NCBI GenBank assembly: GCA_964603545.1
Contig: CAZRVD010000002.1
Coordinates: 46,854-110,853 of the forward strand
Origin: an uncultured Candidatus Saccharibacteria bacterium
GTDB lineage: Bacteria > Patescibacteriota > Minisyncoccia > Phycocordibacterales > DATDWN01
Length of the DNA: 64,000 bases
Direction of reading: 5' to 3'
The stretch's first letter is position 1; every line of letters starts with the position of its first letter. The notes beneath the pieces are model-generated. The model was not told where the DNA came from. It did not search any database and saw only the letters and a program-made list of their open reading frames with translations. A program made the translations under genes and the position numbers. Shown one piece after another: positions 8,402 to 61,224 of this stretch.

Positions 8402-9613
8402 CTACAATGCGTCTGCCAGGGAGTAAGTAGGACCGAGCATACTAATTGCAAAAAATCCAACACCCACACCGATGAGTATCATAAGCACTGGCTCTATGAT
8501 AGACGACATGTCTTTTGTTTTCTGGTCTACTTCTTCTTCATAAAAAGTCGCCACTCCTAGAAGCATCTCCCCTATCTTTCCCGTTTCTTCCCCCACAGCG
8601 ACCATCTCACCAACAAAAAGCGGGTAGAGTTTGGTGTTTGTATTAAATACTCCAGAAATCGGTTCCCCCTTCTGAATTACATCTTGAATCTTTTCCAAAA
8701 CAGCTTTGTAGTAGGAGTTTTGTATAACATCTTTAGTTATTCCTATAGCTAAAACTATATCTACTCCCGAAGAAAGTAATGAGGAGAGCGTTCGAGCTGT
8801 TCTGGCAGAATTTACCTGTTTTACAATTTCCTTAACGACTGGAATATGCAAGAAAACATAGTCTGACATTCTCTGACCTTTTCTTGTTCTGTAACCTATT
8901 ACTAATAGAAATACGGAAAGAATAGTTCCAAAAATAACAAAAACAAAATAGGACTTTAAGAAACTACTAATGGCGATAATAATACGAGTAGAAAGAGGGA
9001 GTTTTATTCCAAGCCCTATAAACGTAGCGGTGAGAGTTGGCACCATGTATACCATCATCAAAACTCCAATAACTATCATAAGTGAAAAGATGACAGCTGG
9101 GTACATCATCGCTCCTCTTATTTTTTTTGTCAGCAGATATGCTTTCTCCATTTGCACACCAACATTTAGAAGTGACGTAGATAGATTTCCGGACTCTTCT
9201 CCGGCCTTAACCATCGACACAAAAAGAGTAGAAAAAACTTTTGGATAGTTTTTCATTGAGTCACTCAGAGTATTTCCCTTTGTTAGAGACTCATTTAAAC
9301 CAATTAAAACTTTTTTGAAAGCTCCTTTAGATTGACGCTCCAATATGGACAAAGCACGAGTAATAGGAAGACCGGCTTCTGTCATTTTAGAGAGATTTTT
9401 GGCAAAAACGATTTTATCTCGAGTTTTAACCCCTCCAAAAATTGAAGACAGAAATGGGATTGAGAATTCTCTCCTTCCTTTTATTTCCTCAGCGGAAATA
9501 ACTGTAGAGCCATCTTGTTTAAGAGTGTGATAAAGGGCAAATTTATCTTTTGCTTCTAAATCCCCCTCAACAACCTTTCCCTCTTTATTTAAAATTTTGT
9601 AGTGAAATAACAT
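8402..9613 (-). CDS. pilC: Type IV pilus assembly platform protein PilC (GspF family)
   Basis: 403-aa polytopic membrane protein with two GspF-like repeats, directly downstream of the pilB ATPase. Confidence 0.9.
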   Translation of the reverse strand: MLFHYKILNKEGKVVEGDLEAKDKFALYHTLKQDGSTVISAEEIKGRREFSIPFLSSIFGGVKTRDKIVFAKNLSKMTEAGLPITRALSILERQSKGAFKKVLIGLNESLTKGNTLSDSMKNYPKVFSTLFVSMVKAGEESGNLSTSLLNVGVQMEKAYLLTKKIRGAMMYPAVIFSLMIVIGVLMMVYMVPTLTATFIGLGIKLPLSTRIIIAISSFLKSYFVFVIFGTILSVFLLVIGYRTRKGQRMSDYVFLHIPVVKEIVKQVNSARTARTLSSLLSSGVDIVLAIGITKDVIQNSYYKAVLEKIQDVIQKGEPISGVFNTNTKLYPLFVGEMVAVGEETGKIGEMLLGVATFYEEEVDQKTKDMSSIIEPVLMILIGVGVGFFAISMLGPTYSLADAL

Positions 9614-9617
9614 ATTT

Positions 9618-11375
9618 TTATTCGGAAACTACCCGGAGGACTTCTTCGATCGTGGTATAACCCTGCACCGCTTGGAAAATCCCATCCTCTATCATAGTCA
9701 GCATTCCCTCTGCTTCTGCCACTTTTTGTATCTCATCAGATGTCCCGGACTTCAAAATAACCTCTTTAATAGCTGGAGAAACTTTTAAAATCTCGTGGAT
9801 ACCACTTCTTCCTGAAAAAGCCTCGTTTACTGGAACATCTTTTTTGACTCTCCAAAAAGGAACATCTTCCCATTTGTCACTTTTGCCAACAATTTTTTCT
9901 GCTTTTAGTGCATCTAGAACTTTGTCTAGATTGATTGATTTACCAAGGGTGTCGATTTCAGATTTTGTCAGGAAATATTTTTCTTTAAATTCGTTTGTTA
10001 GTTTTCTAACCAGTCTTTGTCCAATAATAATGTTTACGGTAGAAACAATAAGAAAAGGCTCCACTTTCATATCTATAAGTCTCGGTACTGCACCAGCTGC
10101 AGAGTTTGTGTGGAGTGTAGAGAGCACTACATGTCCAGTAAGAGACGCGTTTATCGCCAAACTAGCCGTCTCGTTATCACGAATCTCCCCCACCATGATA
10201 ATATCTGGGTCTTGTCGAACTAAAGTTCGCAGTCCCGATGCAAAAGTAAAACCTATCTCGGGACGAACCTGAGTTTGATTTATTCTTTTCATTTGGTACT
10301 CAATAGGATCTTCAATCGTTGAGATATTTACGTCTGGTGTATTTAATATGTCGAGTACAGTATATAGTGTGGTTGTCTTTCCCGATCCTGTAGGACCTGT
10401 TGTCAAAATCATCCCAGTTGTTGACTTTACCGCTCTATGAATTCTGTCTAAGCCCTCCCCATGAAAAGCCAAGGACTCTAGTGTAAAGCCAGAGACATTT
10501 TCTCGGAGTAATCTCATAACAATTTTCTCACCGTAGTAAGTAGGAAGAGAAGAAACACGGAATGAAACTTTTTCTCCATCTGAATCTATTTTAAATCTTC
10601 CGTCTTGAGGAAGTCTTTTTTCATCAAGTTTAAGTGAGGACAGAACTTTAATACGAGCAGCGATACTTGGCGCCATATTTTTTGGCAAAATCATAGCGTC
10701 GTGAAGTAAACCGTCTATTCTATATCTCACGAGAAGTTCTGCTTCCTGTGGCTCTATATGAATGTCAGAGGCGTTTTGCAAAATTGCATGTTTAAGTAAA
10801 GTATCCACGATTCTAATCATCGGGATATCATCTGCCATCTTCTTCAAATCTTGCTCGTTTAGCTCAGCGCCGTCTGTATTTGAAGGAATACTTTTTATAT
10901 TACTGACATCCTCTGCAATCAAATCACCAAACTCTGCCTTCAAACTTTTTTGATACTGCAAAATTGCACTCTTCATTGAATCGTCATCGGTAAGACGAGG
11001 TAAAATCTTAAGTCCCGTTTTCTTTTTTATAAAATCAATCGCAGTTAAATCTTCGGTATCTAGCATGGCAACTTCCAAACTATTGTCTGACTTTTTGAAA
11101 GCAACAACATTATGATTTCTAGCAATAGGTTCTGGAATAAGAGAGAGAACTTCAAAAGGAAGTTTTTCTTTCTTTAGGTCCACAAAAGGAATACCAAGTA
11201 TGTACGCCTGCATTCTACGAAGATCGTCTTCTGTCAGTTTGCCTTTATTTACCAAAGTTTTACCAATATTCCCCCCTTTTTCTTTGGTTTCTTTTTCGGC
11301 GACCTCAATATCAGCCTTGGAAACAAGACCCGAGTCTAGAATAAAATCTTTTAATTGTTTTTCTTCAATGTGCAT
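9618..11375 (-). CDS. pilB: Type IV pilus assembly ATPase PilB (GspE family)
   Basis: 585 aa. Walker A GPTGSGKTTTLY, GspE N-terminal domain and the conserved His-box region. Confidence 0.9.
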   Translation of the reverse strand: MHIEEKQLKDFILDSGLVSKADIEVAEKETKEKGGNIGKTLVNKGKLTEDDLRRMQAYILGIPFVDLKKEKLPFEVLSLIPEPIARNHNVVAFKKSDNSLEVAMLDTEDLTAIDFIKKKTGLKILPRLTDDDSMKSAILQYQKSLKAEFGDLIAEDVSNIKSIPSNTDGAELNEQDLKKMADDIPMIRIVDTLLKHAILQNASDIHIEPQEAELLVRYRIDGLLHDAMILPKNMAPSIAARIKVLSSLKLDEKRLPQDGRFKIDSDGEKVSFRVSSLPTYYGEKIVMRLLRENVSGFTLESLAFHGEGLDRIHRAVKSTTGMILTTGPTGSGKTTTLYTVLDILNTPDVNISTIEDPIEYQMKRINQTQVRPEIGFTFASGLRTLVRQDPDIIMVGEIRDNETASLAINASLTGHVVLSTLHTNSAAGAVPRLIDMKVEPFLIVSTVNIIIGQRLVRKLTNEFKEKYFLTKSEIDTLGKSINLDKVLDALKAEKIVGKSDKWEDVPFWRVKKDVPVNEAFSGRSGIHEILKVSPAIKEVILKSGTSDEIQKVAEAEGMLTMIEDGIFQAVQGYTTIEEVLRVVSE

Positions 11376-11380
11376 GAGAT

Positions 11381-11480
11381 ACGAAAATTATTCGAACATT
11401 ACGAATGGCTACGAATAATGCGTTTGGCTTTTTCCATTCGCAATCATTCGTTGATTTAAATTATTCGTATATTCGTATGT
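11381..11480. repeat. Array of TACGAA(T)/ATTCGTA heptamer repeats upstream of pilB; shares a 21-mer with the 19625-19760 array
   Basis: GATACGAAAATTATTCGAACATTACGAATGGCTACGAATAATG...CATTCGCAATCATTCGTTG...ATTCGTATATTCGTATG. The string ATTACGAATGGCTACGAATAAT recurs inverted at 19696-19717. Confidence 0.7.
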
Positions 11481-11540
11481 TTATCTTAATTATACCAAAA
11501 TTAAAATCTTATTTCACAAAAAATGTGTAAAAGATTATTA

Positions 11541-11569
11541 TTGACTAAATTTGTAAATTAGATTAGACT
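11541..11569 (+). promoter_or_regulatory. Sigma70-like promoter (TTGACT-17-TAGACT) driving the downstream structured RNA
   Basis: -35 TTGACT at 11541-11546, a 17-bp spacer, then -10 TAGACT at 11564-11569. Confidence 0.45.
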
Positions 11570-11576
11570 CATTTAT

Positions 11577-11878
11577 GAAACAGTTCTTGGTTCGCCGGCG
11601 ATGGGTCTGCCAACTCAGGTGTGGTGGCTCACCCTGGCCACCGTGAGCGACTAACCGCTCAAAACAGGATCAAAATCTTGAACAGACCCATCGCTTTCCG
11701 CCCGCAAGTTTCAAGCGGGTGGGTCCGACCGGTTCATGGTTTCCAGATCTATGGGTAAAAGTCCGGGTCGACATTGTGTCGTCGCCCCGGCTTTTCGTTT
11801 ATTTGACAAAAAGATTGCTTGGGTGTATTATGGTGTTATTGAAGTTCGCCCACCAGGGCGGGCTCGTTTTTTTACCGG
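11577..11878 (+). ncRNA. Structured GC-rich RNA with own promoter and intrinsic terminator; candidate nusA leader/attenuator or unassigned ncRNA
   Basis: ~300 nt markedly GC-rich. Long-range complement GATGGGTCTG (11601-10) / CAGACCCATC (11682-91). Hairpins CCCGC-AAGTTTCAA-GCGGG and GGTGGC-TCACCCTG-GCCACC with an alternative GCTCAC/GTGAGC pairing. It ends in the terminator GCCCACCAGGGCGGGCTCGTTTTTTT. Only random-looking ORFs overlap it. Confidence 0.4.
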
Positions 11879-11953
11879 AGGTAAAAAAACAATTAAACAG
11901 CTTTACCTAAGCCCTGTTTAGGTAGAAATAAATTAAAATTAAATATAACTAAT

Positions 11954-18101: not shown

Positions 18102-19631
18102 ATGTCATTAAAAATTGTAGCTCTACTTTTGAGCACAGCATCACTAACATCGTTAGTGATCGGTTATTATCTGCGTATTTTGGTTGCAAAAAGTAAGAAG
18201 GGTTCGATGGAGCTTGATATTCAGAAGATGATGCTTGTGGCTAAAGACAAAGAGCAAAAGATAATAGACGAAGCAAGTATTAAAGCTGAAGAAATATTAA
18301 ATACTGCGCGAGTTGAGATAAAACAAAAAGAGGAAGACAATAAAAAAACAGAGGAAAGATTGGTGAAAAAAGACGAACTACTCCTCCAACGTCAGTCTGA
18401 TATGGATAAAGAAGTAGAAGAAGTTAAAAAGAGAATTCAGGAAATTAAACAGATCAGAGAAAATGCTGAAAAAATAGAGCAAGAAAAGAAAGAAGAGTTA
18501 CAAAAAATTGCAGGGCTTTCGAAAGAGGAAGCGAAGAAAGAAATAATGAAAACAGTTGAGAGAGAATCTGAAGAAGATATTTTGGTTAGGATGAAGAAAT
18601 TGGAAATGGATGGTAGCGAAAAAATAGAAGAAAAAGCAAAAGGAATTTTAGCTAGCTCCATACAAAGACTTTCAAACTCAGTGACTTCAGATATGCTTAC
18701 AACAAACGTTGCGATACCAAGTGACGAAATAAAAGGGAAAATAATTGGAAAAGAGGGCCGAAATATAAAGGCTTTTGAGAGATGTACTGGAGTTGAGGTG
18801 ATTGTTGACGATACTCCGGGCTCTATTACCATCTCCTCTTTTGACCCAGTGAGACGCCAGATAGCTAAAACTGCCCTAGAGAAACTTATAGCAGATGGAA
18901 GAATACAACCTGCAAAAATCGAGGATATGGTGAAACTAGCAGAGGAGGAAATAAATAAAATAATAAAAGAGAAGGGTGAAGAAGCTGTATATGAAACAGG
19001 TGTACTTGGTCTTGATCCAAAAGTAATTTCTATTTTAGGAAGACTACACTTTAGAACAAGTTACGGACAAAATGTTTTGGCACACTCAATAGAAATGACT
19101 CATATAGCTGGAATGCTTGCCGAAGAAATTGGTGCGAACGTTGCTGTAGCAAAAGCTGGAGCGCTTGTCCACGACATTGGAAAAGCACTTGATCATGAAG
19201 TAGTTGGTACACACGTTGAGATAGGAAGAAGAATACTTCAAAAATTTGGCACGGACGAAAATATTATTAAAGCAATGCAGGCACACCATGAGGAATACCC
19301 TTATGAAACTGTAGAATCTATGATCGTGCAGTCAGCAGATGCAATATCTGGCGGAAGACCTGGGGCAAGACGAGACAGTATTGAAAACTATTTGAAGAGA
19401 TTAAAAGATTTGGAAGCTGTGGCAAATTCATTTAACGGCGTAGAAAAGTCTTACGCACTACAGGCAGGAAGAGAAATAAGAATATTTGTAACACCAACAG
19501 AAGTGACGGACCTAGAAGCCAAGAAAATGGCGAGAGATATAGCCCTAAGGATAGAATCGGAGTTAAAATACCCAGGAGAGATAAAGGTTTCAGTCATCCG
19601 GGAGTCCCGAACCATCGAGTTCGCCCGTTAA
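18102..19631 (+). CDS. rny: Ribonuclease Y
   Basis: 509 aa. N-terminal TM, coiled-coil, KH domain (GKIIGKEGRNIK) and HD domain (HSIEMTHIAGMLAEEIG...VHDIGKA). Confidence 0.9.
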   Translation: MSLKIVALLLSTASLTSLVIGYYLRILVAKSKKGSMELDIQKMMLVAKDKEQKIIDEASIKAEEILNTARVEIKQKEEDNKKTEERLVKKDELLLQRQSDMDKEVEEVKKRIQEIKQIRENAEKIEQEKKEELQKIAGLSKEEAKKEIMKTVERESEEDILVRMKKLEMDGSEKIEEKAKGILASSIQRLSNSVTSDMLTTNVAIPSDEIKGKIIGKEGRNIKAFERCTGVEVIVDDTPGSITISSFDPVRRQIAKTALEKLIADGRIQPAKIEDMVKLAEEEINKIIKEKGEEAVYETGVLGLDPKVISILGRLHFRTSYGQNVLAHSIEMTHIAGMLAEEIGANVAVAKAGALVHDIGKALDHEVVGTHVEIGRRILQKFGTDENIIKAMQAHHEEYPYETVESMIVQSADAISGGRPGARRDSIENYLKRLKDLEAVANSFNGVEKSYALQAGREIRIFVTPTEVTDLEAKKMARDIALRIESELKYPGEIKVSVIRESRTIEFAR

Positions 19632-19760
19632 AGATACGAATGGACAAGTAATTCTCAAACTTACGAATCTATACGAATGAAATACTAAAACAGGTTGATT
19701 TATTCGTAGCCATTCGTAATAATCGTCCAATCTTTATTCGTATCTGTCAATCTATTGCGT
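19625..19760. repeat. Imperfect ~110-bp palindrome built from 3x TACGAAT then 3x ATTCGTA units, between rny and hup
   Basis: Left arm GATACGAATGG...TTACGAATC-TA-TACGAATGA. The reverse complement of the right arm, GATACGAAT...TTACGAATGGCTACGAATAA, aligns with the left arm. Confidence 0.7.
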
Positions 19761-19831
19761 CAGAAAAGCCTTACTGTATACTAATTACATAGTAGATAGT
19801 AGGTTTATTAGTGGCTTAATCATTTTAAATT

Positions 19832-20104
19832 ATGAATAAAGCAGGCATTGTAGACGCAGTACATGAAAAATTAGGTGGTACAAAGGTCCAAGCTGAGGAA
19901 GTTGTAGATTTGGTAATAGATTCAATAGTTAATACTCTTAAGAAGGGTGGAGAAGTTTCTGTGGCAGGTCTAGGAATCTTCTCAACTAAGACAAGAGCAG
20001 CTAGACAAGCTAGAAACCCAAGAACAGGGGCTTCAATTTCAGTTCCTGCAATGAGGGTTCCAAAATTCCGTGCAGCTAAGGCACTTAAGGAAGCGGTCAA
20101 ATAG
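19832..20104 (+). CDS. hup: DNA-binding protein HU
   Basis: 90 aa with the HU arm region ARQARNPRTGASISVPA. Confidence 0.95.
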   Translation: MNKAGIVDAVHEKLGGTKVQAEEVVDLVIDSIVNTLKKGGEVSVAGLGIFSTKTRAARQARNPRTGASISVPAMRVPKFRAAKALKEAVK

Positions 20105-38846: not shown

Positions 38847-38918
38847 AAATTTAAAATCTGAGTGAATCCGAAATGAAAATGCTGAGTATTTCTGAGAATT
38901 TTTGTTCGAGTTGTAATA

Positions 38919-39040
38919 AAACTTTCACAATTTGTGCTAAATCCGATGTGAGAAATTAAAAATGTGAGAAGCCTTATTAGACATAAGGTGACGAGTATTT
39001 TTAATTTTGGAACGAGGAGTTAGCCAAATTTGAAAATTTT
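38919..39040 (-). repeat. Post-stop structured repeat, copy B (begins at stop of M23 peptidase gene)
   Basis: Sense strand reads TAA-AATTTTCAAATTTGGCTAACTCCTCGTTCCAAAATTAAAAATACTCGTCACC-[CCTTAT GTCTA ATAAGG]-CTTCTCACATTTTTAATTTCTCACATCGGATTTAGCACAAATTGTGAAAGTTT. Confidence 0.85.
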
Positions 39041-40136
39041 AGAATGGGTTGCGGGCGCCACGAATCTCAAAATGTACATGCACCCCAGTACTCTTACCTG
39101 TTGATCCCATCTTTCCTATGATCTGACCTTGATTGACTCTGTCTCCAGGACTAACTGCTAAGCTACTCAAGTGTCCGTACAATGTTTGTGTACCGTTTCC
39201 ATGTTTAATAACTACATAGGTACCATAACCGCCATTCCAACCAACTCTAGCAATAATAACTTCGCCAGAAGCTGAAGCTAGAACATTCGCACCATAGCTG
39301 GATGCTAAATCTACTCCGTTATGACCATGGATACCTTGAGTTTTAATACCACCGACAATCGGTCTCATGTAATAACCGCTGTATGTTGGCCCCCCACTAG
39401 TTCCCGCACTAGTCCTTCTTGTTCCAGCTGAAACAGGGGCAGCCTCGCCATCTGGAACTACAATCACATCTCCAACAACAAGCTTGGAATTTTTGGTTAA
39501 GTTATTGTACTGCATTATTTCGTCCAAATCTCCCTTGTGCAGTTTTGCAATAGCTTGAAGGGTATCGCCCGATTTTACAACGTGTTGTACTCCTGAAATA
39601 GGTAAAATTACTAGAGTTTGCCCTAAAGTAAGTTTGTCACTTTTTAAATCATTGCCCCATTTAATAGTATTTACAGAAACTCCGAACATTTTAGCAATAA
39701 TTGGTAATGTATCTCCCTGGCGAACAACATAAACACTAATCTGCTCATCGTCTATAGTTTTGGAGTCTGCAATTGCCTGAGTTTCGGAAGAAATATAAAC
39801 ATCGTCAACAATAGAAAGCTCTCCCGTGGTAGAAGATGAGTTTTGGTTTGGAGAAAGTGTTGCCTGAAGTAGAGCAATATTCTGTGAGTTTGAAGAAACG
39901 ATCTCTTCAGCCTCTGCTTTGCTCCCCCCAGAAAAACAAGATTTTATATCAAAAATCCCACAAGCAGAAGCTGTGAGTGGAAATAGAAACAAAGACAAAA
40001 TAGCCGGATTAATGGCTAAAACAGACACTATTTTCACCACATTCTTAGTAGATCCCACCTGACGACACTTTTTGTAAAATGTTGACGAGGTGATTTTAAG
40101 ACCTGACTGGGAATGAGGATCTTGTGTAGACCTCAA
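39039..40136 (-). CDS. M23-family metallopeptidase with two LysM domains
   Basis: LysM repeats YVVRQGDTLPIIAKMFGVSVNTI and HVVKSGDTLQAIAKLH. M23 catalytic region HNGVDLA...GTYVVIKHGNG..TLYGHL...GSTGKSTGVHVHFE. The start is uncertain; the N-terminal 50 aa look atypical and a downstream GTG may be the true start. Confidence 0.85.
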   Translation of the reverse strand: MRSTQDPHSQSGLKITSSTFYKKCRQVGSTKNVVKIVSVLAINPAILSLFLFPLTASACGIFDIKSCFSGGSKAEAEEIVSSNSQNIALLQATLSPNQNSSSTTGELSIVDDVYISSETQAIADSKTIDDEQISVYVVRQGDTLPIIAKMFGVSVNTIKWGNDLKSDKLTLGQTLVILPISGVQHVVKSGDTLQAIAKLHKGDLDEIMQYNNLTKNSKLVVGDVIVVPDGEAAPVSAGTRRTSAGTSGGPTYSGYYMRPIVGGIKTQGIHGHNGVDLASSYGANVLASASGEVIIARVGWNGGYGTYVVIKHGNGTQTLYGHLSSLAVSPGDRVNQGQIIGKMGSTGKSTGVHVHFEIRGARNPF

Positions 40137-50283: not shown

Positions 50284-50721
50284 ATGCGTTACCAAATACC
50301 ACAATTTATTGATGTAGAAGACAAAATCATTGGGCCCTTAACCCTAAAGCAATTCGTGTATCTTGCTGGTGGAGCTGGAATGGCTTTTGTTATTTATACT
50401 TATATACCTATATACATAGCTGTGATACTAATAGCTGTAGTGATACCGCTCTCTATTGCTCTAGCTTTTTATAAAATAAATAACAAACCATTCGTAGATT
50501 TTCTTGAATCTGCTTTCATGTTTTATACAAAACAAAACCTTTATATATGGAGAAAAGAGCAAAAGAAGATAGTAAAATCAGAAGCAGATGTGGCCAAAGA
50601 ATCTGCTCAAGTGTATGTACCAAGACTTTCCGATAGTAAACTGAAAGAATTGTCGTGGACCTTAGACATAAATGAAAATCTTAATCCATTAACCGGACAA
50701 AGTGGCAAAAATACAAAGTAA
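50284..50721 (+). CDS. Small two-TM membrane protein, PrgI/VirB3-like by context
   Basis: 145 aa with a hairpin TM pair (LAGGAGMAFVIYTYIPIYIAVILIAVVIPLSIALAFY), immediately upstream of the VirB4 pieces. Confidence 0.4.
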   Translation: MRYQIPQFIDVEDKIIGPLTLKQFVYLAGGAGMAFVIYTYIPIYIAVILIAVVIPLSIALAFYKINNKPFVDFLESAFMFYTKQNLYIWRKEQKKIVKSEADVAKESAQVYVPRLSDSKLKELSWTLDINENLNPLTGQSGKNTK

Positions 50722-50759
50722 CTTAAAGTTTTCTATTATAATTCTGATATAATAATGGC

Positions 50760-51392
50760 ATGGCTGTAAATTCTAAAGCAACACAAGAATTCGTTCCGAT
50801 AAAAGAAGTCAGAGATGGTATTGCTGTGCTCAAAGATGGCTCCATGCGAGGTATTGTTTTGTCTTCTTCTCTAAACTTTAGCCTAAAATCGGAAGACGAG
50901 AGAAAAGCTATTGTTCTACAGTTTCAAGACTTTTTGAATTCTCTAGACTTCAGCGTACAGATATCTATTCAATCAAGAAGACTGGATATACGGCCATACA
51001 TAGCCCTTTTAGAGGACAGGTACAAGGAACAAACCAATGACTTAATGAAAATTCAGACCAGAGAATACATTGATTTCATAAGAAAGTTTACAGAAACAAC
51101 AAACATAATGACCAAAAGTTTCTTTGTCGTTGTGCCATATGATCCAGCTCTTATAAATATAAAAAGTGGTACTGGATTTTTCAAAAAAACATCTGTAAGT
51201 GAAGATCAGATTAAAAAAGAAGCTTCTTTTGAAGAAAACCGGACTCAGTTAGAGCAAAGAGTCTCTGTTGTAGAACAAGGTCTCTCAAGATGTGGAATAA
51301 GAGTAATAAGACTGGGAACAGAAGAAGTTATTGAGCTTTTCTATAAGATATTTAATCCAGGGGATACAGAAAAACCAATTAAATCATCATAA
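50760..51392 (+). CDS. VirB4/TrsE-family conjugation-type ATPase, N-terminal fragment (separated from remainder by one in-frame TAA)
   Basis: 210 aa. EFVPIKEVRDGIAVLKDGSMRGIV resembles the VirB4 N-terminus. It is in the same frame as 51399-53210. Confidence 0.6.
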   Translation: MAVNSKATQEFVPIKEVRDGIAVLKDGSMRGIVLSSSLNFSLKSEDERKAIVLQFQDFLNSLDFSVQISIQSRRLDIRPYIALLEDRYKEQTNDLMKIQTREYIDFIRKFTETTNIMTKSFFVVVPYDPALINIKSGTGFFKKTSVSEDQIKKEASFEENRTQLEQRVSVVEQGLSRCGIRVIRLGTEEVIELFYKIFNPGDTEKPIKSS

Positions 51393-51398
51393 AAAAAC

Positions 51399-53210
51399 AT
51401 GGGAATATTTGATTTTTTAAAAAAGAAAAAAGAGGAGCAGGAAATTTCAACAATTCTCCCACAAGAGATATATGATTCTAGTACTCTTGAATTGAAAGAC
51501 GTCATTGCTCCAAGCGCTCTAAAGGTTACCCCGAAAGAAATCAACCTTGGTGAAAAAGTTTTACGAAGTTTCTTTGTTATCTCATACCCAAGATACCTTT
51601 CTGATAGTTGGTTTTCTCCAATAATTAACTTGGATAAGATATTCGATATTTCAATATTTGTTAAACCCATAGATACGGCGGGAGTTCTGCGCACCTTTCA
51701 AAAAAAAGTGGCTGAGGTCCAGAGTCAGATAAATACCAGAGAAGCAAAGGGGTTAGTTAGAGACCCGATGCTAGATACTGCCTACCAAGATCTTGAGAAC
51801 CTTCGAGACAACCTCCAGCAGGCTCAGGAAAGACTTTTTGACGTCGGGCTTTATATTACGATGTACGCAGATTCTAGTGAAGAATTGGACAAAGTAGAGT
51901 CAGAAATAAAATCAATACTAGAAGCAAAACTTGTATATCTCAAACCCGCACTTTTCCAACAAGAACAAGCTTTTAAAGCTGCAATACCAATAGCCACAGA
52001 TGGACTCGAGGTTTACAGCAAATTAAACTCTTCACCATTATCTAGTTTGTTTCCATTTGTTTCATTTGATCTTACTTCTGACAAGGGGATTCTTTACGGA
52101 ATAAATCGTCACAACTCATCCCTTGTTTTGTTCGATAGGTTTTCTTTGGAAAACTATAACTCCATAACATTTGCAAAATCTGGTGCAGGAAAATCCTACA
52201 TGACTAAGATAGAAATTCTTAGAACATTAATGTTTGATACTGATGTTATGGTGTTGGACCCTGAAAGAGAGTACGAATACCTAGCAGAAGCTGTTGGGGG
52301 AAGATATTTTAATATTTCTCTAAACTCTGAACACCACATAAATCCTTTTGAACTTCCAACTCCTGGAGAAGACGAGTCATTCGCAAACGTACTTCGCTCA
52401 AATATCATAAACCTTGTCGGTCTTTTCCGTATCATGATGGGAGGACTGACCCCAGAAGAAGACGCTATTATAGACAGAGCAATAACAGAAACTTATGCAC
52501 TTAAAGACATTACAGCAGACTCAAACTTTGAAAATGTAGAGCCCCCACTACTTTCAGACTTTGAACTCGTTCTTTCTGGAATGGAGGGGGGAGACTCTCT
52601 AGCACAGAGACTAACAAAATATACTAGAGGTACTTGGGCAGGGTTTATAAACAGACCGAGTAATGTTGATATAAATAAAAGATTTATCGTCTTTTCTCTT
52701 CGCGACATGGAAGATGAGCTCAAGCCTATCGCCATGTACATCATAATGCACTATATATGGAACATGATAAGAAAGAAGTTAAAGAAGAGACTTCTTGTTA
52801 TAGATGAGGCTTGGTGGATGATGAAATCCGAAGACACAGCTTCTTTCCTTCTCTCTCTTGCAAAAAGAGGAAGAAAATACTATCTAGGACTTGCTACAAT
52901 AACCCAAGACGTTGATGACTTCTTAAAATCCCCTTATGGATTGCCCATTATAACAAACTCTTCTATTCAAATACTTTTGAAACAATCCCCAACAGCTATA
53001 GACAAACTACAACAAGCCTTTAGTTTAACTGATGAAGAAAAATATCTGTTATTAGAATCTGATGTTGGAGAGGGAATATTCTTTGCTGGATTAAAACACG
53101 TAGCTATAAAGGTTATCGCTTCATATACTGAGGATCAAATAATAACATCAGACCCTTCACAAATTTTATCGATTAAAAAGGCTAGGGTTGATTTAGAAAA
53201 TAGTAAATAA
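51399..53210 (+). CDS. VirB4/TrsE-family conjugation-type ATPase, C-terminal portion
   Basis: 603 aa. Walker A FAKSGAGKSYMTK and Walker B LLVIDEAWWMM. Confidence 0.8.
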   Translation: MGIFDFLKKKKEEQEISTILPQEIYDSSTLELKDVIAPSALKVTPKEINLGEKVLRSFFVISYPRYLSDSWFSPIINLDKIFDISIFVKPIDTAGVLRTFQKKVAEVQSQINTREAKGLVRDPMLDTAYQDLENLRDNLQQAQERLFDVGLYITMYADSSEELDKVESEIKSILEAKLVYLKPALFQQEQAFKAAIPIATDGLEVYSKLNSSPLSSLFPFVSFDLTSDKGILYGINRHNSSLVLFDRFSLENYNSITFAKSGAGKSYMTKIEILRTLMFDTDVMVLDPEREYEYLAEAVGGRYFNISLNSEHHINPFELPTPGEDESFANVLRSNIINLVGLFRIMMGGLTPEEDAIIDRAITETYALKDITADSNFENVEPPLLSDFELVLSGMEGGDSLAQRLTKYTRGTWAGFINRPSNVDINKRFIVFSLRDMEDELKPIAMYIIMHYIWNMIRKKLKKRLLVIDEAWWMMKSEDTASFLLSLAKRGRKYYLGLATITQDVDDFLKSPYGLPIITNSSIQILLKQSPTAIDKLQQAFSLTDEEKYLLLESDVGEGIFFAGLKHVAIKVIASYTEDQIITSDPSQILSIKKARVDLENSK

Positions 53211-53221
53211 AAACGAACAAA

Positions 53222-53647
53222 ATGGACAAAGAACCTCAAATCAAAGACACTGTAGCGTTTCTAATGATATTTACCGCTCTTTTTTTTGATGCCTTACAAG
53301 CTTTAATTGGATGGATACCCATGGTCGGAAACGTCATTTCTGATGTGATTAGTATATTTGTATTTATGACTTTTTTGTTGTGGTTCCACATGTATGGGGT
53401 AAAAATGATGACCCCAAAAAGATTCACGTCCCTAGGACTAGGAGGTGTCATTGAAATGATTCCTTATGTAAACCTACTTCCGGCATGGACTCTTGTCGTT
53501 ATTTACCTTATTGGAACAACCAAAATTAAAGAGTTGTTTGAAAAAAACCCAGGAGTGGCTGGTTCGATATTTAGGCTTGGTGAAAAAATAAAAAACCTGA
53601 ACAAAACCGGGGAGCCACCACACGTACCGCTCATAGACGAGCGTTAA
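53222..53647 (+). CDS. Hypothetical membrane protein
   Basis: 141 aa with 3 TM helices. Confidence 0.45.
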   Translation: MDKEPQIKDTVAFLMIFTALFFDALQALIGWIPMVGNVISDVISIFVFMTFLLWFHMYGVKMMTPKRFTSLGLGGVIEMIPYVNLLPAWTLVVIYLIGTTKIKELFEKNPGVAGSIFRLGEKIKNLNKTGEPPHVPLIDER

Positions 53648-53709
53648 TTGTCGAGAACTTTGTGAATAACAAAAGGCCACTAAAAAATGATTATGGTATT
53701 ATTATAAAG

Positions 53710-54729
53710 ATGAGATATCTTATTGTTATATCACTATTTATTATAACTTTACTATTTGTTGGTTTTTTTGATTACTCTAGTACAGCATCGGCTCAAGGTC
53801 TTGGAATGAATGATGTTATAAACATTGATTTGGTACCTGCGGTACCAAAGGCAAACGAAACTGTATATGTATTTCTAACTAGTTATGCAACAAATATAGA
53901 CGCTGCCAGTATAACCTGGAGAGTTAATGGAAAAACAATTAAATCTGGCGTTGGAGAAAAAACTTTTAATTTCTCTATGGGAGACGTTGGTAAAATCACA
54001 ACTCTTAGTGTTACAGTAAAAACAACTGATGGTTCCGTAATTGAAAGATCAATCCCCTTAAAACCAATAAGTGTTGATCTTGTGTGGCAAAGTAACGGTT
54101 TTGTCCCGCCGTTTTATAAAGGAAAAGCCCTTTTTAGTCATCAAAATCAAGTGACTGTGATAGCCTCACCACACATACCTAATTCAAGCGGTGGAGAAGT
54201 AAGTCCTAAAAATATCATATATAAGTGGAGGAAGAATGGCTCAGTAGATGAAGGTGCTTCTGGGTTTGGTAAAAACACCTACACTTTTGAAGGATCGCTT
54301 ATATCAAGACCTGTTACTATTGGAGTTGAAGTAACCGCCACTGGTGGAGAAGGAATTGGTTACGCAACCATAAATTTAACCCCAAATGAGCCTGCTATAA
54401 TTTTTTATAAAAAAGACCCTATCTATGGAATAGAATTCCAAAGAGCCTTAGCTGGAACAGTTGAACTAAGTAATTCAAACGAAATCAATATTATTGGCGC
54501 ACCTTTCTTTTATAGTACGGATGACTATTTATCTGAAAAACTAATCTATAAATGGTCAATTAATGGGTCTCCAATAAATAATGCGGTCAGTCAAAGAAAT
54601 CAAGTGCTTAGACAAAAAGAGGGAACTAGTGGGTCATCCAATATTTCCTTGTCTATAGAAAATCCAGGTAAAATACTACAATACTCTTCTTCTAATTTCT
54701 ATCTGCAATTCAAGGACAATAATCAATAA
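53710..54729 (+). CDS. Hypothetical secreted protein
   Basis: The signal peptide MRYLIVISLFIITLLFVGFF starts at the ATG at 53710. The track start at 53662 is probably too early. Confidence 0.5.
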   Translation: MRYLIVISLFIITLLFVGFFDYSSTASAQGLGMNDVINIDLVPAVPKANETVYVFLTSYATNIDAASITWRVNGKTIKSGVGEKTFNFSMGDVGKITTLSVTVKTTDGSVIERSIPLKPISVDLVWQSNGFVPPFYKGKALFSHQNQVTVIASPHIPNSSGGEVSPKNIIYKWRKNGSVDEGASGFGKNTYTFEGSLISRPVTIGVEVTATGGEGIGYATINLTPNEPAIIFYKKDPIYGIEFQRALAGTVELSNSNEINIIGAPFFYSTDDYLSEKLIYKWSINGSPINNAVSQRNQVLRQKEGTSGSSNISLSIENPGKILQYSSSNFYLQFKDNNQ

Positions 54730-54740
54730 TGTAGTAAAAA

Positions 54741-55607
54741 ATGAAAAAAAATATAAAAAAAATAATACCCATAATTACACTGATCATCATGTTAGTGCCA
54801 GGATTTTTTGGAGTGTACGCCCAAACTCCACCACCGAACAACCCGACCCCTTATACCGTACTAACAACACTACCAGGAATAGGGACCCAAACAACACTAA
54901 CTAGTTATCTGCCAGCGGCCTTTAATTTAGCTATTGGTATAGCTGTTGCTCTCGCTTTCGTTATGATTACTTTTGGTGGAGTAACTTACGCCACATCGGA
55001 CGCAATAACAGGCAAGGCAAAAGGAAGGGAGTATATTGAAGATGCATTATGGGGATTGCTTTTAGTAATTGGATCATATGTAATATTAAACACCTTAAAT
55101 CCGCAAATTCTTAACTTTAGTCTGCGTTTTGACAGACCAACTGTACCAGTCTCTAGCGTAACTTTAATCGCAGGAACTCCACTAGACCCCGCAGCCAGAG
55201 CTGATGATGCCTCTGTTAGAGCTACTCTGGTTGGCATAGGAATAAATCACCCCCCTTGTCTTGCTGGAGAAACACAAGGATGTACAAACGTTAACGGACT
55301 TCCAGCTGGGGCTGTTACTGGCCTCTTAACACTGAAGAAGGCATGCAATGGCTGTACTATTATGATAACTGGTGGAACTGAAGGTGGACATGCAACTCAC
55401 GGGCCAGGAAAGCAAATCGTAGACCTAAGGCCTGAAAACGCTTTAAATTATTATATTTGGGGGGATGGCAACACCCCGCCAGACGGAACAACAAGAACAA
55501 AAAACTTACCTAACGGTCAGTCAATAAAGTTTGTTTATGAAACGGCAGGAGGAAATGTCAGGGGAACTTCAACGGGAGCGCATTGGCATACTGTAATATC
55601 AAATTAA
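54741..55607 (+). CDS. T4SS pilin-like (signal peptide + two TM) protein fused to a C-terminal Gly/His-rich domain
   Basis: 288 aa. The N-terminal half has a signal peptide, a Pro-rich linker, and AIGIAVALAFVMITFGG...ALWGLLLVIGSYVILN. Confidence 0.4.
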   Translation: MKKNIKKIIPIITLIIMLVPGFFGVYAQTPPPNNPTPYTVLTTLPGIGTQTTLTSYLPAAFNLAIGIAVALAFVMITFGGVTYATSDAITGKAKGREYIEDALWGLLLVIGSYVILNTLNPQILNFSLRFDRPTVPVSSVTLIAGTPLDPAARADDASVRATLVGIGINHPPCLAGETQGCTNVNGLPAGAVTGLLTLKKACNGCTIMITGGTEGGHATHGPGKQIVDLRPENALNYYIWGDGNTPPDGTTRTKNLPNGQSIKFVYETAGGNVRGTSTGAHWHTVISN

Positions 55608-55608
55608 T

Positions 55609-56829
55609 ATGTCAAAAAAAACCATATTTACGATAACGTTTATTATTCTCCTAATAGTCCTGGCTGGACTAGTAGGATACTACCTAAATAAAAATGATGA
55701 GAGTACTCCTAATGGAACTCCAAGTATTTTTAGAAATTTTTTCCCTTTTGGTGGAAACGACCTTCCAGACAATAACGACACAACCACACCAGAGGATGAC
55801 GGTGATGTAGTAGAAGAACCTGTAGATTTTATACAAAAACTAAGGAGAATCTCTGGAGAGCCTGTGGCTGGAGCAGGACTCCTTGATGTTAAAGCAGGAA
55901 CTATTGTACGTTATATAGAAAAAGCTACAGGGCACATCTTTGAAGTGGAGCTGTTCTCTCCAAGACAAGGTAGAATATCGAACACAACAATTCCACAAGT
56001 GTATGATGCTGTTTGGGGCAACAAAAATGAATCCTTGATGGCTAGATATTTAAAAGAAGATGACCAAACAATAGACACTTATTCACTTTCTATAAAAGAT
56101 ACCAGTACTACAACGGAAAACACGATTTCAGGGATCGCATTTCCGGTAAATCTTAGCGATGTTTCGGTTTTTGGAAATAGTGTTTTTTATCTAGAGAAAA
56201 ATAGTAATTCATCGTACGGCTATATCTCCACATTTAGTGGTTCTGGTAAAAGACTTATTTGGAACTCTCCTCTTACTGAACTTACATCTCAATACGTAAA
56301 TGCAAAAACTGTAGCGCTTACTACAAAACCAGAAGAGAGCACCCCGGGATTCCTATATTTTGTTGACACTAGTACCGGATCAATTCGAAATATCCTTCAA
56401 AACATACTTGGACTTTCTGCTCTTGTTAATGACAATGCTACTGAAGTGTTGTATCTAAACCAAGGAGGTAGATCAGATTTATATTTATATAATTTAAGCA
56501 CTAGAGCAAACTTGAAACTAACGCCCTCTACTTTCCCAGAGAAATGCGTGTGGAGTAAAAAAGATAGAACTGTAGTATATTGTGCCGTACCGAGAGAATC
56601 TGTGGAAACAAATAGTCTAACCTTATGGTATAAAGGTCAAATTCAACTAACGGATGATATTTGGAAATTTGATTTAAAAAATAACTCATCAAGTATTACT
56701 CTGGACCTTAGCAAGGAGTCTGGGGAAACGATAGATGTAATAAAACCTATCTTGTCAGATAGCGAACAGTATTTGGTATTTGTAAATAAAAGAAACAACT
56801 CTCTATGGAGTTTGGACTTGAGTAAATAA
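55609..56829 (+). CDS. Hypothetical membrane-anchored protein
   Basis: 406 aa with an N-terminal TM (IFTITFIILLIVLAGLVGYYL). Confidence 0.45.
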   Translation: MSKKTIFTITFIILLIVLAGLVGYYLNKNDESTPNGTPSIFRNFFPFGGNDLPDNNDTTTPEDDGDVVEEPVDFIQKLRRISGEPVAGAGLLDVKAGTIVRYIEKATGHIFEVELFSPRQGRISNTTIPQVYDAVWGNKNESLMARYLKEDDQTIDTYSLSIKDTSTTTENTISGIAFPVNLSDVSVFGNSVFYLEKNSNSSYGYISTFSGSGKRLIWNSPLTELTSQYVNAKTVALTTKPEESTPGFLYFVDTSTGSIRNILQNILGLSALVNDNATEVLYLNQGGRSDLYLYNLSTRANLKLTPSTFPEKCVWSKKDRTVVYCAVPRESVETNSLTLWYKGQIQLTDDIWKFDLKNNSSSITLDLSKESGETIDVIKPILSDSEQYLVFVNKRNNSLWSLDLSK

Positions 56830-59734: not shown

Positions 59735-60835
59735 ATGAACATAGAATGTATTAAGGACAAACTTTCATACGCTATTGGAAAAGCTGAAAAAATTACAGGT
59801 AAAAATATTACACTACCTATATTAGGTTGTGTACTCCTTGAGGCTGACAAATCAACATTAACAATAAAAGCTACAAATTTAGATTTAGGTATAGAGATAA
59901 ATATTCCTGTAAAGGTAATAAAACCAGGAAAAGTAGCTGTTTCTGGTTCGGTTTTGTATAATTTTATATCAAACATAATTACTGATAAAAATGTTTCTTT
60001 GGAGGTTGTAGATGGAAATTTAAAAGTGTCAACAAAACATTCAGAATCAACAATAAAATCATTCCCAATTGATGATTTTCCAAATATTCCAAAAGTGTCT
60101 AGTGATAATCCTTTTACATTTAACGCTCCAAATTTAATAAAAGGATTAAAATCTGTAATGTATAGTTCTTCCGTTTCAACAATAAGGCCGACACTTTCTA
60201 GTGTTTTGGTTTTATCTGAAGACGAAGAGGTTGTTTTTGTCGCAACAGACTCCTTTAGGTTGGGAGAAAAGAAGATTGGAGTAAAAAAACACAAAGATTT
60301 TAATCAAATTCTTATACCCTTTAAAAACATAGGGGAGATTATAAGAGTTTTAGAAGATATAAAAGATGATGTTTTGGTTTTTCTAAATGAAAATCAAATA
60401 GCTTTTTCTTACGGAGATATATATATTACATCGAGGGTAATAGACGGTGTTTTTCCTGATTACAAACAAATAATTCCAAAAGATACAAAAACTGAGGTTA
60501 TAGTTTTAAAACAGGATTTCATAAGCTCTCTGAAAATATCAAACATTTTCGCTGATAAATTTAGTCAAGTCACTTTCTTTATCTCTCCCAAAAATAACCT
60601 TTTTAAAGTTTCAACAAAAAATATGGATGTAGGAGAAAGTATAAGTAATATAGATGCGGTTTTAAAAGGGGAAGAATTATCTATAAGTTTTAACTATAAA
60701 TATATAGTAGACTGTTTTCAATCTATAGACAGCGATAGCATCTCTCTTTCTTTTTCTGACGCAAACAAACCAATGGTAATAAGAGGGGTTTCGGATAAAT
60801 CATTTCTCTACCTGGTTATGCCGATGAATAAATAA
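59735..60835 (+). CDS. dnaN: DNA polymerase III beta sliding clamp
   Basis: 366 aa with the three-domain beta-clamp pattern, downstream of dnaA. Confidence 0.9.
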   Translation: MNIECIKDKLSYAIGKAEKITGKNITLPILGCVLLEADKSTLTIKATNLDLGIEINIPVKVIKPGKVAVSGSVLYNFISNIITDKNVSLEVVDGNLKVSTKHSESTIKSFPIDDFPNIPKVSSDNPFTFNAPNLIKGLKSVMYSSSVSTIRPTLSSVLVLSEDEEVVFVATDSFRLGEKKIGVKKHKDFNQILIPFKNIGEIIRVLEDIKDDVLVFLNENQIAFSYGDIYITSRVIDGVFPDYKQIIPKDTKTEVIVLKQDFISSLKISNIFADKFSQVTFFISPKNNLFKVSTKNMDVGESISNIDAVLKGEELSISFNYKYIVDCFQSIDSDSISLSFSDANKPMVIRGVSDKSFLYLVMPMNK

Positions 60836-60958
60836 AGACTTCCAAATCCGGCGAACTCCTGGTTTCAAATTTAAAAATACTCATCATCTTACTGTTTGTA
60901 AGGCTCCTCTCATTTTTAAATTCTCAACTTCGGATTTCATCCAAATTATGAAAGTCTT
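60836..60958 (+). repeat. Post-stop structured repeat, copy E (sense with dnaN, begins at its stop codon)
   Basis: TAA-AGACTTCCAAATCCGGCGAACTCCTGGTTTCAAATTTAAAAATACTCATCATC-[CTTAC TGTTT GTAAG]-GCTCCTCTCATTTTTAAATTCTCAACTTCGGATTTCATCCAAATTATGAAAGTCTT. Aligns with revcomp of copy A. Confidence 0.85.
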
Positions 60959-60969
60959 AACAAAAAACA

Positions 60970-61224
60970 ATGTTAAATATATCTAAATTTTTAGAAAAAT
61001 TTAAAAAAAATATTGAAACTGGAGAGTTGTTGAATAGTAGAATTATTGAGATTGTTAAAAATAAAACTGGGATAGTTTTAAATATTGGTGATTTTGAAAT
61101 AAAAGAAGGTGTGCTCTATTTTAAAACATCACCTATGGTTAGAAACAAACTTTTTATTTATAAAGACGATCTAATAAGAGAAACAAATCTTTTAAGTGGA
61201 TTAAAAATAGTAGATATTAGGTAG
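60970..61224 (+). CDS. Small protein downstream of dnaN, DUF721/DciA-like by position
   Basis: 84 aa. The assignment rests only on size and location. Confidence 0.35.
   Translation: MLNISKFLEKFKKNIETGELLNSRIIEIVKNKTGIVLNIGDFEIKEGVLYFKTSPMVRNKLFIYKDDLIRETNLLSGLKIVDIR

Follow-up and report, generated by a model that had tools for sequence, protein, structure and literature searches.

A small dispersed DNA element built from convergent rows of the heptamer TACGAAT in intergenic spacers of Patescibacteria and Bacteroidota

In the 64-kb stretch of DNA analyzed here (the window), two intergenic regions, one upstream of the pilB-pilC-pilin operon and the other between rny and hup, are made up of rows of the heptamer TACGAAT and of its complement, ATTCGTA. 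An earlier, sequence-only reading of the window proposed that these are either iterated binding sites for one regulator, which would co-regulate the pilus genes and hup, or copies of a small palindromic selfish repeat. The locus raises the question of what such arrays are, and whether carrying them says anything about the regulation of the genes beside them.

Two arrays in the window and their surroundings

The window has a G+C content of 37% and holds 13 exact copies of the heptamer in either orientation, compared to 7.1 expected. Heptamer density is far from even, with 10 of the 13 in two places of approximately 100 nt each, designated R1 and R2. R1 has four exact heptamers (11400–11477) and four copies with one mismatch, starting at 11380, while R2 has six exact heptamers (19635–19742). 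When 13 hits were placed at random in 200,000 trials, four or more fell within 110 nt in five trials, and six never did. The two arrays are built alike, with a TACGAAT block on the left, an ATTCGTA block on the right, and the inner pair TACGAATnnnTACGAAT in each. They have in common the 21-mer ATTACGAATGGCTACGAATAA in opposite orientation (R1, 11398–11418, plus strand; R2, 19700–19720, minus strand), for which shuffled sequences gave no match, and forward R1 is co-linear with reversed R2 across approximately 100 nt. The clusters, their block order, and the shared 21-mer had all been described in the sequence-only reading, and our counts bear them out. That an A+T-rich heptamer should cluster by chance between genes is an explanation with nothing in its favor beyond the low G+C content of the window, and it is refuted by the random placements, by the 21-mer (no matches expected), and by the occurrence of the same architecture in at least 117 unrelated genome stretches. 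Two other candidates were also rejected. A DNA uptake sequence would be over-represented throughout the genome, coding DNA included, which is not the pattern of these 13 heptamers, and an origin with DnaA boxes does not fit either, as dnaA and dnaN lie at 58–61 kb of the window, where there are no heptamers.

The flanking genes had been called correctly, as confirmed by Pfam: pilB, encoding a T2SSE ATPase (9618–11375, minus strand), rny, encoding RNase Y (18102–19631, plus strand), and hup, encoding HU (19832–20104, plus strand). On the minus strand, pilC and the pilin genes follow downstream of pilB, and nusA lies to the right of R1. The left block of R1 (11380–11416) consists of TACGAAA at 11380, a reversed copy with one mismatch, ATTCGAA, at 11390, and TACGAAT at 11400 and 11410, and its left edge is 4 nt away from the start codon of pilB (CAT at 11373–11375). 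A variable center, AATGCGTTTGGCTTTTTCC (11417–11435), which is not conserved in the orthologous copy of L115, is followed by the right block (11436–11486), with ATTCGCA at 11436, ATTCGTT at 11446, ATTCGTA at 11463 and 11471, and the terminal motif TGTTTATCT at 11478–11486, the opposite-strand reading of a family terminus, AGATAAACA. R2 begins 3 nt past the rny stop codon (19629–19631). Its left block (19632–19681), with the terminus AGATACGAAT, has TACGAAT at 19635, 19662, and 19672; the variable center spans 19682–19698; and the right block (19699–19745), with the terminus ATTCGTATCT, has ATTCGTA at 19702, 19712, and 19736 and includes the 21-mer. R2 had been described as a near-palindrome with arms of approximately 55 nt. 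The pairing is not continuous: the 10-nt termini are complementary at 100% and the inner 21 nt at 81%, and the stretches between heptamers are not complementary.

The two copies differ in where they lie relative to the promoters. The predicted pilB promoter, GTGAAA-17-TATAAT on the minus strand (11489–11517), rests on a consensus match and on the conservation in relatives of its extended −10 box, TGgTATAAT (11489–11497). This position of the −10 box places R1 between the −10 box and start site on one side and the ATG on the other, i.e., in the 5′ leader of pilB, which it spans from approximately the predicted start site, near 11482 of the minus strand, to 4 nt before the ATG. R1 had been assigned to the pilB promoter region and is downstream of the promoter proper. 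The putative hup promoter is TTGCGT-16-TATACT (19755–19782, plus strand), 10 nt to the right of R2; it falls below the threshold of a consensus promoter scan and is recognized by conservation, being kept in all aligned relatives with or without an array.

Several other features of the window were recorded along the way. Between R1 and the nusA leader, a G+C-rich stretch of approximately 330 nt (11541–11900) carries a promoter-like TTGACT-17-TAGACT and is a candidate structured RNA; it is common to L119 and, more distantly, to L124, and has no Rfam match at E ≤ 1. The nusA leader (11803–11875) has TTGACA-17-TATTAT followed by a terminator-like hairpin and T-run, kept in all aligned relatives, and judging from this arrangement may be an attenuator. 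A second dispersed intergenic repeat of approximately 135 nt, unrelated to the TACGAAT arrays and with no Rfam match, is present in four copies with a mean identity of 72%: after pgk (1886–2045, plus strand), between a pilin gene and pilC (8262–8405, plus strand), after a comM-like gene (38895–39050, plus strand), and between dnaN and a small ORF (60825–60985, minus strand). A run of co-directional ORFs at 50284–56829, one encoding a 603-aa protein and several encoding predicted membrane or secreted proteins, is a possible secretion or conjugation-like cluster.

A family of arrays in two phyla

One genome per species was scanned with the architecture pattern TACGAATNNNTACGAATN{10,40}ATTCGNANNNATTCG, which has 25 specified bases and, by our estimate, approximately 0.03 matches by chance. 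At least 117 genome stretches matched. Approximately three-quarters of the matches listed are from Patescibacteria of many classes (Zambryski-, Nomura-, Nealson-, Kaiser-, Wolfe-, Sungii-, Azam-, Levyi-, Curtiss-, Kerfeld-, and Falkowbacteria, and Saccharibacteria), and the remainder are mostly from Bacteroidota, often on several contigs of one genome. The membership of Bacteroidota is genuine, since the RuvB adjoining the array in L031 is 82–85% identical to RuvB of Bacteroidia, some of it encoded on Mb-size contigs. Arrays that fall outside the selection imposed by the pattern show the identical build. A phage or plasmid origin was rejected, as the same pattern had no match in 2.9 million viral contigs and consensus arrays had none among PLSDB plasmids. 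No Rfam family matches the window or 16 loci, and none of six array strings was found in a full-text literature search, for which the heptamer alone is too common to be informative. Literature searches on MITEs and on Patescibacteria returned nothing relevant, and a 77-bp inverted repeat of P. gingivalis proved unrelated. R1 and R2 are copies of a small, non-coding, dispersed DNA element that lies between genes in many Patescibacteria and Bacteroidota and is, apparently, undescribed.

The anatomy of the element was compared across 112 arrays. Its length is 60–120 nt (median 90 nt), with a left row of three to five TACGAAT and a right row of three to five ATTCGTA around a free center, and the commonest forms are ++++---- (4 + 4) and +++++----- (5 + 5). 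Of the block pairs found, 68 were convergent and none divergent. The heptamer is conserved (T.95, A.88, C.99, G.87, A.99, A 1.0, T.96), with C3, A5, and A6 nearly invariant. Spacing from start to start is mainly 8 or 10 nt, and 211 of 325 steps have a mirrored counterpart in the other arm; typical patterns are 8-10-8 in both arms, or 8-9-8-10 on the left and 10-9-9-8 on the right. The free center measures 0–35 nt, and the gap between blocks ranges from −2 to 33 nt. Beyond the outermost heptamers are short end motifs that are specific to a genome and common to its copies, for example AGATAAACA in Zambryskibacteria, GGCA in CAVUWW01, GATACCAAT in CAZYWN01, and ATC in Bacteroidota, where many copies terminate in CTAC.../...GTAG. 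Terminal inverted repeats of the MITE type are present, in the form of convergent heptamer blocks and of palindromic termini such as AGATACGAAT/ATTCGTATCT.

Arrays fill the whole spacer, with the upstream stop codon mostly 1–12 nt away and the downstream start codon mostly 4–20 nt away. The junctions with the start codon are stereotyped, with ...TTTCGTAAAGAT or ...ATTCGTATATTAAATTTT directly followed by ATG. The spacers are co-directional in 77 cases, divergent in 11, and convergent in 11, and several of the convergent ones are genuine (e.g., L016, L057, and L060). Arrays also occur inside operons, between mraZ and rsmH (L069), between a response-regulator gene and a putative kinase gene, and among ribosomal protein genes (L6, L18, and S5; S13, S11, and S4). 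The 82 downstream genes belong to more than 60 unrelated families, mostly housekeeping, with 17 of the 82 encoding ribosomal proteins; the downstream genes in Bacteroidota are mainly metabolic. Within a genome, the copies are discrete and sharp-ended, with unrelated flanks and sometimes a center in common. Arrays recur before the same genes (pilB, hup, recA, recR, and ribosomal protein genes) across classes, with 13 coincident pairs compared to a rough random expectation of approximately five. Two suggestions drawn from neighboring genes were rejected: arrays merely occupy spacers of two-component operons, and the array of L069 is not an MraZ operator, as it lies between mraZ and rsmH and not upstream of mraZ. 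Known MraZ boxes contain GTGG.

When all ORFs, or those of 35–130 aa, at the 117 loci were clustered, no recurrent transposase, regulator, or small protein was found near the arrays, and only housekeeping families came up. A PaaX-like family is present at four array loci, kilobases from the arrays. In approximately 1 Mb of array loci (8-kb blocks around full arrays), no autonomous partner with the same ends was found, and the genes between neighboring arrays are housekeeping genes. At one locus (L043, 3473–3922), two arrays that are mutual reverse complements flank a 94-aa ORF resembling the small ORF that follows dnaN in the window.

The genome from which the window comes is related to Zambryskibacteria. 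Comparison of relatives shows that the element comes and goes as a block. At eight syntenic loci with RNase Y 84–94% identical to that of the window, no clear array was found at the places covered, with L122 and L123 reaching the rny–hup side only. In the closest relative, L122, whose RNase Y is 94% identical, an 11-nt spacer stands where the window has R2, and the rny–hup array is absent in all relatives examined. The pilB array is absent in L118–L121, L124, L125, and L128–L134, and 80 metagenomic loci with PilB 64–85% identical, which amount to 1.03 Mb, held one clear array in total and none at pilB. In L118–L120 and L123–L125, the place of R2 is taken by a conserved segment of approximately 110 nt with a small hairpin (CCTTAC...GTAAGG), unrelated to R2.

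A clean filled and empty pair was found in Bacteroidota, where L031 differs from L208 and L209 (RuvB 95% and 94% identical, respectively) by 79 nt. In the empty site, GTTTGGAA and TATTCTTAGATAA adjoin, with TAA serving as the stop codon for the gene upstream. The block begins after GGAA in the filled site, and the upstream reading frame enters it and stops at an internal TGA; the native ATTCTTAGAT there reads ATTCGTAGAT, similar to an element end. Through the insertion (L031, 1170–1290; L208/L209, 2470–2500), the upstream gene, which encodes a WD40-repeat protein, loses its last four codons and gains a new stop, and the native ATTCTTAGAT beside it already resembles an element end. No target-site duplication is evident at this one clean pair or at the flanks of copies within a genome; around R1 and R2 themselves, the flanking sequences have diverged between the window and its relatives. 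Several copies in one genome and presence or absence between relatives, as in MITEs, were both found.

Conservation of the array upstream of pilB orthologs, which the sequence-only reading had proposed as a check, was found in a few of them, and no clear array stands there at the syntenic loci that reach pilB or at the 80 loci with related PilB. In L115 (Zambryskibacteria Baikal-deep-G185; PilB 82% identical), the same idiosyncratic array stands at pilB, and another lies directly before nusA. When the window is compared with L115, identity at the four-fold sites of pilB is 37.5%, compared to 29% for random sequence, with no local block of higher identity. The arms of the two array copies are approximately 95% identical, and the center is not conserved. 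Such identity in the arms, despite saturated synonymous divergence in pilB, indicates purifying selection on the pilB copy. In L126 and L127 (PilB 85% identical), a degenerate array keeps CGAAT cores at the same place. The remaining relatives have a pilB leader of 10–20 nt or unrelated short-repeat arrays: (TTCTATC)x8 in L130 (292), TAGTAGATA.../...TATCTACTA in L131 (10001), CTTTTAACTT in L129 (516), and (TAATTTC)n in L121 (592–1039), all of which can fold. The pilB leader looks like a hotspot for repeat arrays of differing sequence.

How the arms may be read and how the arrays may spread

If the arrays acted as transcribed RNA, each would form a long imperfect hairpin before a start codon or between cistrons, with a role in processing, stability, or translation control. 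R1 is transcribed within the predicted pilB leader, arrays within operons must be read through, and other repeat arrays that form hairpins occupy the same place in the pilB leaders of relatives. The R1 leader folds at −27.3 kcal/mol compared to −13.5 for shuffled sequences, and the mean over 64 arrays is −29. However, the pairing itself is not conserved. Mirrored spacer bases match in 33% of cases, compared to 34% for a null in which arms were paired between unrelated arrays, and only 13 variant heptamers are mirrored in the opposite arm while 222 are not; arm covariation was absent whether the arms were paired outside-in or inside-out. When the 64 arrays were oriented according to the gene downstream, the sense fold was no more stable than the antisense fold (−29.4 versus −30.4 kcal/mol, p = 0.19), and G-U pairs were not enriched. 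With arrays oriented in this way, variant heptamers were equally frequent in the 5′ and 3′ arms, and variants that yield G-U pairs showed no preference for an arm. Moreover, a hairpin would not require one heptamer in two phyla, no Rfam family matches, and the hup transcript predicted from the conserved promoter would not include R2. We, therefore, consider an RNA-level element quite improbable.

Conserved heptamers and spacing, unconserved pairing, and the lack of strand asymmetry together mean that selection is strand-symmetric, which is the signature of double-stranded DNA sites. Most likely, the arms are read as double-stranded DNA by a sequence-specific protein. The proposal of iterated binding sites, thus, survives for the arms, in which heptamers and spacing are conserved, pairing is not, and the pilB copy is under selection, and even there binding is what these patterns point to rather than an observation. 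In the window, a heptamer-binding protein would occupy the DNA of the pilB leader and, at hup, the DNA immediately before the −35 region. A promoter carried by the array itself was rejected: heptamer pairs spaced by 8 nt give TAnATT, and type-B ends give TATATT-N6-7-ATG, but −10-like hexamers at leaderless distance are not enriched (27%, compared to 22% for control genes).

The same constraint bears on a REP/REPIN-type repeat mobilized by a REP-associated tyrosine transposase (RAYT). The arrays are dispersed between genes, have a palindromic build, and come without a target duplication, many Bacteroidota copies end in CTAC.../...GTAG, and RAYT genes do occur in Patescibacteria, with L056 (6203–6835) matching NF047646 at 80.7 bits and L128 (6045–6734) giving a weaker match. 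Both of these genes, however, are flanked by G+C-rich palindromes of their own, GAAGGCGACATTCCGGAATGTCGCCTTC and AGCCCTAGGGTACCCCTAGGGCT, and not by TACGAAT arrays. In addition, such enzymes act on folded single strands, for which pairing of the arms would be needed, and constraint that is strand-symmetric without pairing argues against this single-strand chemistry as it does against an RNA hairpin. A RAYT-mobilized repeat is, in our judgment, very improbable. The RAYT-type Y1 transposase genes and their flanking palindromes (L056, 6140–6912; L128, 6000–6760) were recorded as a separate observation, as was a palindrome copy that lies in frame inside the RAYT gene of L056 (6486–6512).

A further possibility is that the arrays are operators of a global regulator of the host, with a conserved (for example, cooperative) DNA-binding protein tuning many housekeeping genes, including pilB and hup, and with patchiness reflecting turnover and not mobility. 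The strand-symmetric constraint on heptamers and spacing and the strong purifying selection on the pilB copy would be expected of such operators. Many arrays stand 4–12 nt from a start codon with stereotyped junctions, downstream genes are enriched in ribosomal protein genes, and arrays recur in other classes before pilB (L037), hup (L082), recA, and recR. Against this, the downstream genes are functionally unrelated and, in Bacteroidota, mostly metabolic, and arrays also stand between convergent genes (L016, L057, and L060) and within operons. The distribution is very patchy among close relatives, which differ by blocks of approximately 80–110 nt, one of them cutting into the end of a coding sequence. 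Copies within a genome have centers in common, and the distance between arms, from −2 to 33 nt, would be intolerable for a single complex spanning both. Diverse flanking genes, patchy distribution, and block-wise differences argue against a conserved regulon, and we regard a global regulator as a somewhat unlikely explanation.

Co-regulation of pilB and hup in particular was the claim of the sequence-only reading. An array stands before pilB in an Azambacteria genome (L037) and another before hup in a Saccharibacteria genome (L082), and these speak weakly for the idea. The position relative to the promoter differs, with the L082 array downstream of the hup promoter, in the leader, and R2 upstream of it, and this placement means that the L082 copy arose independently of R2; it also counts against a global regulator. 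Close relatives of the window lack both arrays, and more than 60 unrelated families of genes neighbor arrays of this family. A dedicated pair of co-regulated genes is not supported; pilB and hup are linked only in that each carries a copy, as do dozens of unrelated genes. The caution to be drawn is that shared intergenic motifs are not evidence of co-regulation.

The other half of the original proposal, a small selfish repeat, fits most of the evidence, as the copies are discrete, sharp-ended, multiple, beside unrelated genes, and present or absent between relatives. Our preferred explanation, to which we give about an even chance, is a MITE-like dispersed element whose arms would be protein-binding arrays and some copies of which the host has retained by selection. 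Each arm would be a polar, inward-facing row of protein sites, as in transposon ends with several sites per end, and the free center and varying distance between the arms are easier to reconcile with two ends bound independently than with one spanning complex. Gain and loss of the element would take place block-wise, in intergenic spacers and now and then in the last codons of a gene, and some inserted copies would then be kept by selection. In the window, one copy lies between the −10 box of pilB and the ATG, in the leader, and the other between the rny stop codon and the hup promoter, and the probable effect on expression would be through occupancy of leader or promoter-proximal DNA. Protein binding by the arms, the mode of spread, and any effect on expression are our reading of a family whose architecture, distribution, filled and empty sites, and pattern of constraint are observed directly.

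A purely selfish element does not account for everything. Retention of one heptamer in two phyla is unusual among MITE families, and the pilB copy has been conserved for long. The modest recurrence before the same genes is also unexplained by selfishness alone, as are the absence of a coding partner and the lack of target duplication. Prolonged conservation at pilB, together with the degenerate copy of L126 and L127, suggests that some copies, at least, are of use to the host. A more far-reaching and, in our view, unlikely proposal is that the arrays are cis-sites of an undescribed system of Patescibacteria and Bacteroidota, in which one sequence-specific binding protein, possibly a domesticated recombinase or nucleoid protein, assembles in polar rows on the TACGAAT sites, propagates the arrays, punctuates operons, and sets the expression of housekeeping genes, including those for the pilus ATPase and HU.

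Comparison with known systems and significance

Small, non-coding repeats of approximately 60–150 nt with inverted ends are known from several bacteria, including Correia/NEMIS in Neisseria, ERIC/IRU in enterobacteria, RUP in pneumococcus, and RPE in Rickettsia. Like these, the TACGAAT element is multi-copy, lies between genes and within operons, is present or absent between relatives, and can sit in leaders and be co-transcribed. Those families, however, are each known from a single genus or family and have ordinary inverted repeats, whereas the arms of the TACGAAT element are rows of one heptamer, occur in two phyla, and do not co-vary, and no duplication of TA or of another target was seen. 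REP, BIME, and REPIN sequences are likewise dispersed, intergenic, free of target duplication, and long-persistent, and upkeep by a cognate protein could explain conserved arms. REP sequences are short paired hairpins that flank their own RAYT gene, whereas pairing is not conserved in the TACGAAT arrays, and the RAYT genes that were found carry other repeats.

The ends of Tn7, Mu, and IS21 have several protein sites each, with sites of 15–22 bp, target duplications, and coding partners. They resemble the TACGAAT element, as do eukaryotic foldback elements, in that each end has an inward row of sites and a few distinct terminal bases, with a free segment in between. In contrast, TACGAAT sites are 7 bp, and neither target duplication (at one clean pair) nor a coding partner (in approximately 1 Mb of array loci) was found. 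The omega heptads (WATCACW) of inc18 plasmids, ParR/parC iterons, ParG/parH boxes, and MetJ boxes are arrays bound cooperatively by small proteins. These are rows of four to 10 short sites with periods of 7–11 bp, direct and convergent, over approximately 100 bp, recognized as double-stranded DNA without pairing of arms, all of which is similar to the arrays described here. However, they occur once or a few times, beside the operon of the binder on a plasmid, whereas the TACGAAT arrays are present in dozens of chromosomal copies beside unrelated genes. Arrays of this kind are the subject of several papers (PMC4627068, PMC3074150, PMC3130281). Direct repeats of another heptamer, TAACTGA, have been reported in Beggiatoaceae, Cyanobacteria, and some Bacteroidetes; they are also iterated and intergenic, often a few nucleotides from a start codon, beside genes without a common function, and patchy across phyla (PMC4679880). 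TAACTGA repeats are contiguous and have one orientation relative to the gene, whereas TACGAAT is spaced by 8 or 10 nt and always forms two convergent blocks; TACGAAT is absent from that paper (PMC4679880). None of the families compared is matched by the TACGAAT arrays in all of its defining features.

Patescibacteria have tiny genomes, few recognizable regulators, and very short spacers, and to our knowledge almost nothing is known of their cis-acting DNA. In this setting, an element of approximately 100 nt stands in the spacers of essential operons, keeps one heptamer over two phyla, and is strongly selected in at least one copy. Either it is a selfish element that has been successful and unusually well conserved, or it belongs to a layer of control. 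As such, it offers a bait for finding the binding protein and, at the level of strains, a marker of insertion polymorphism.
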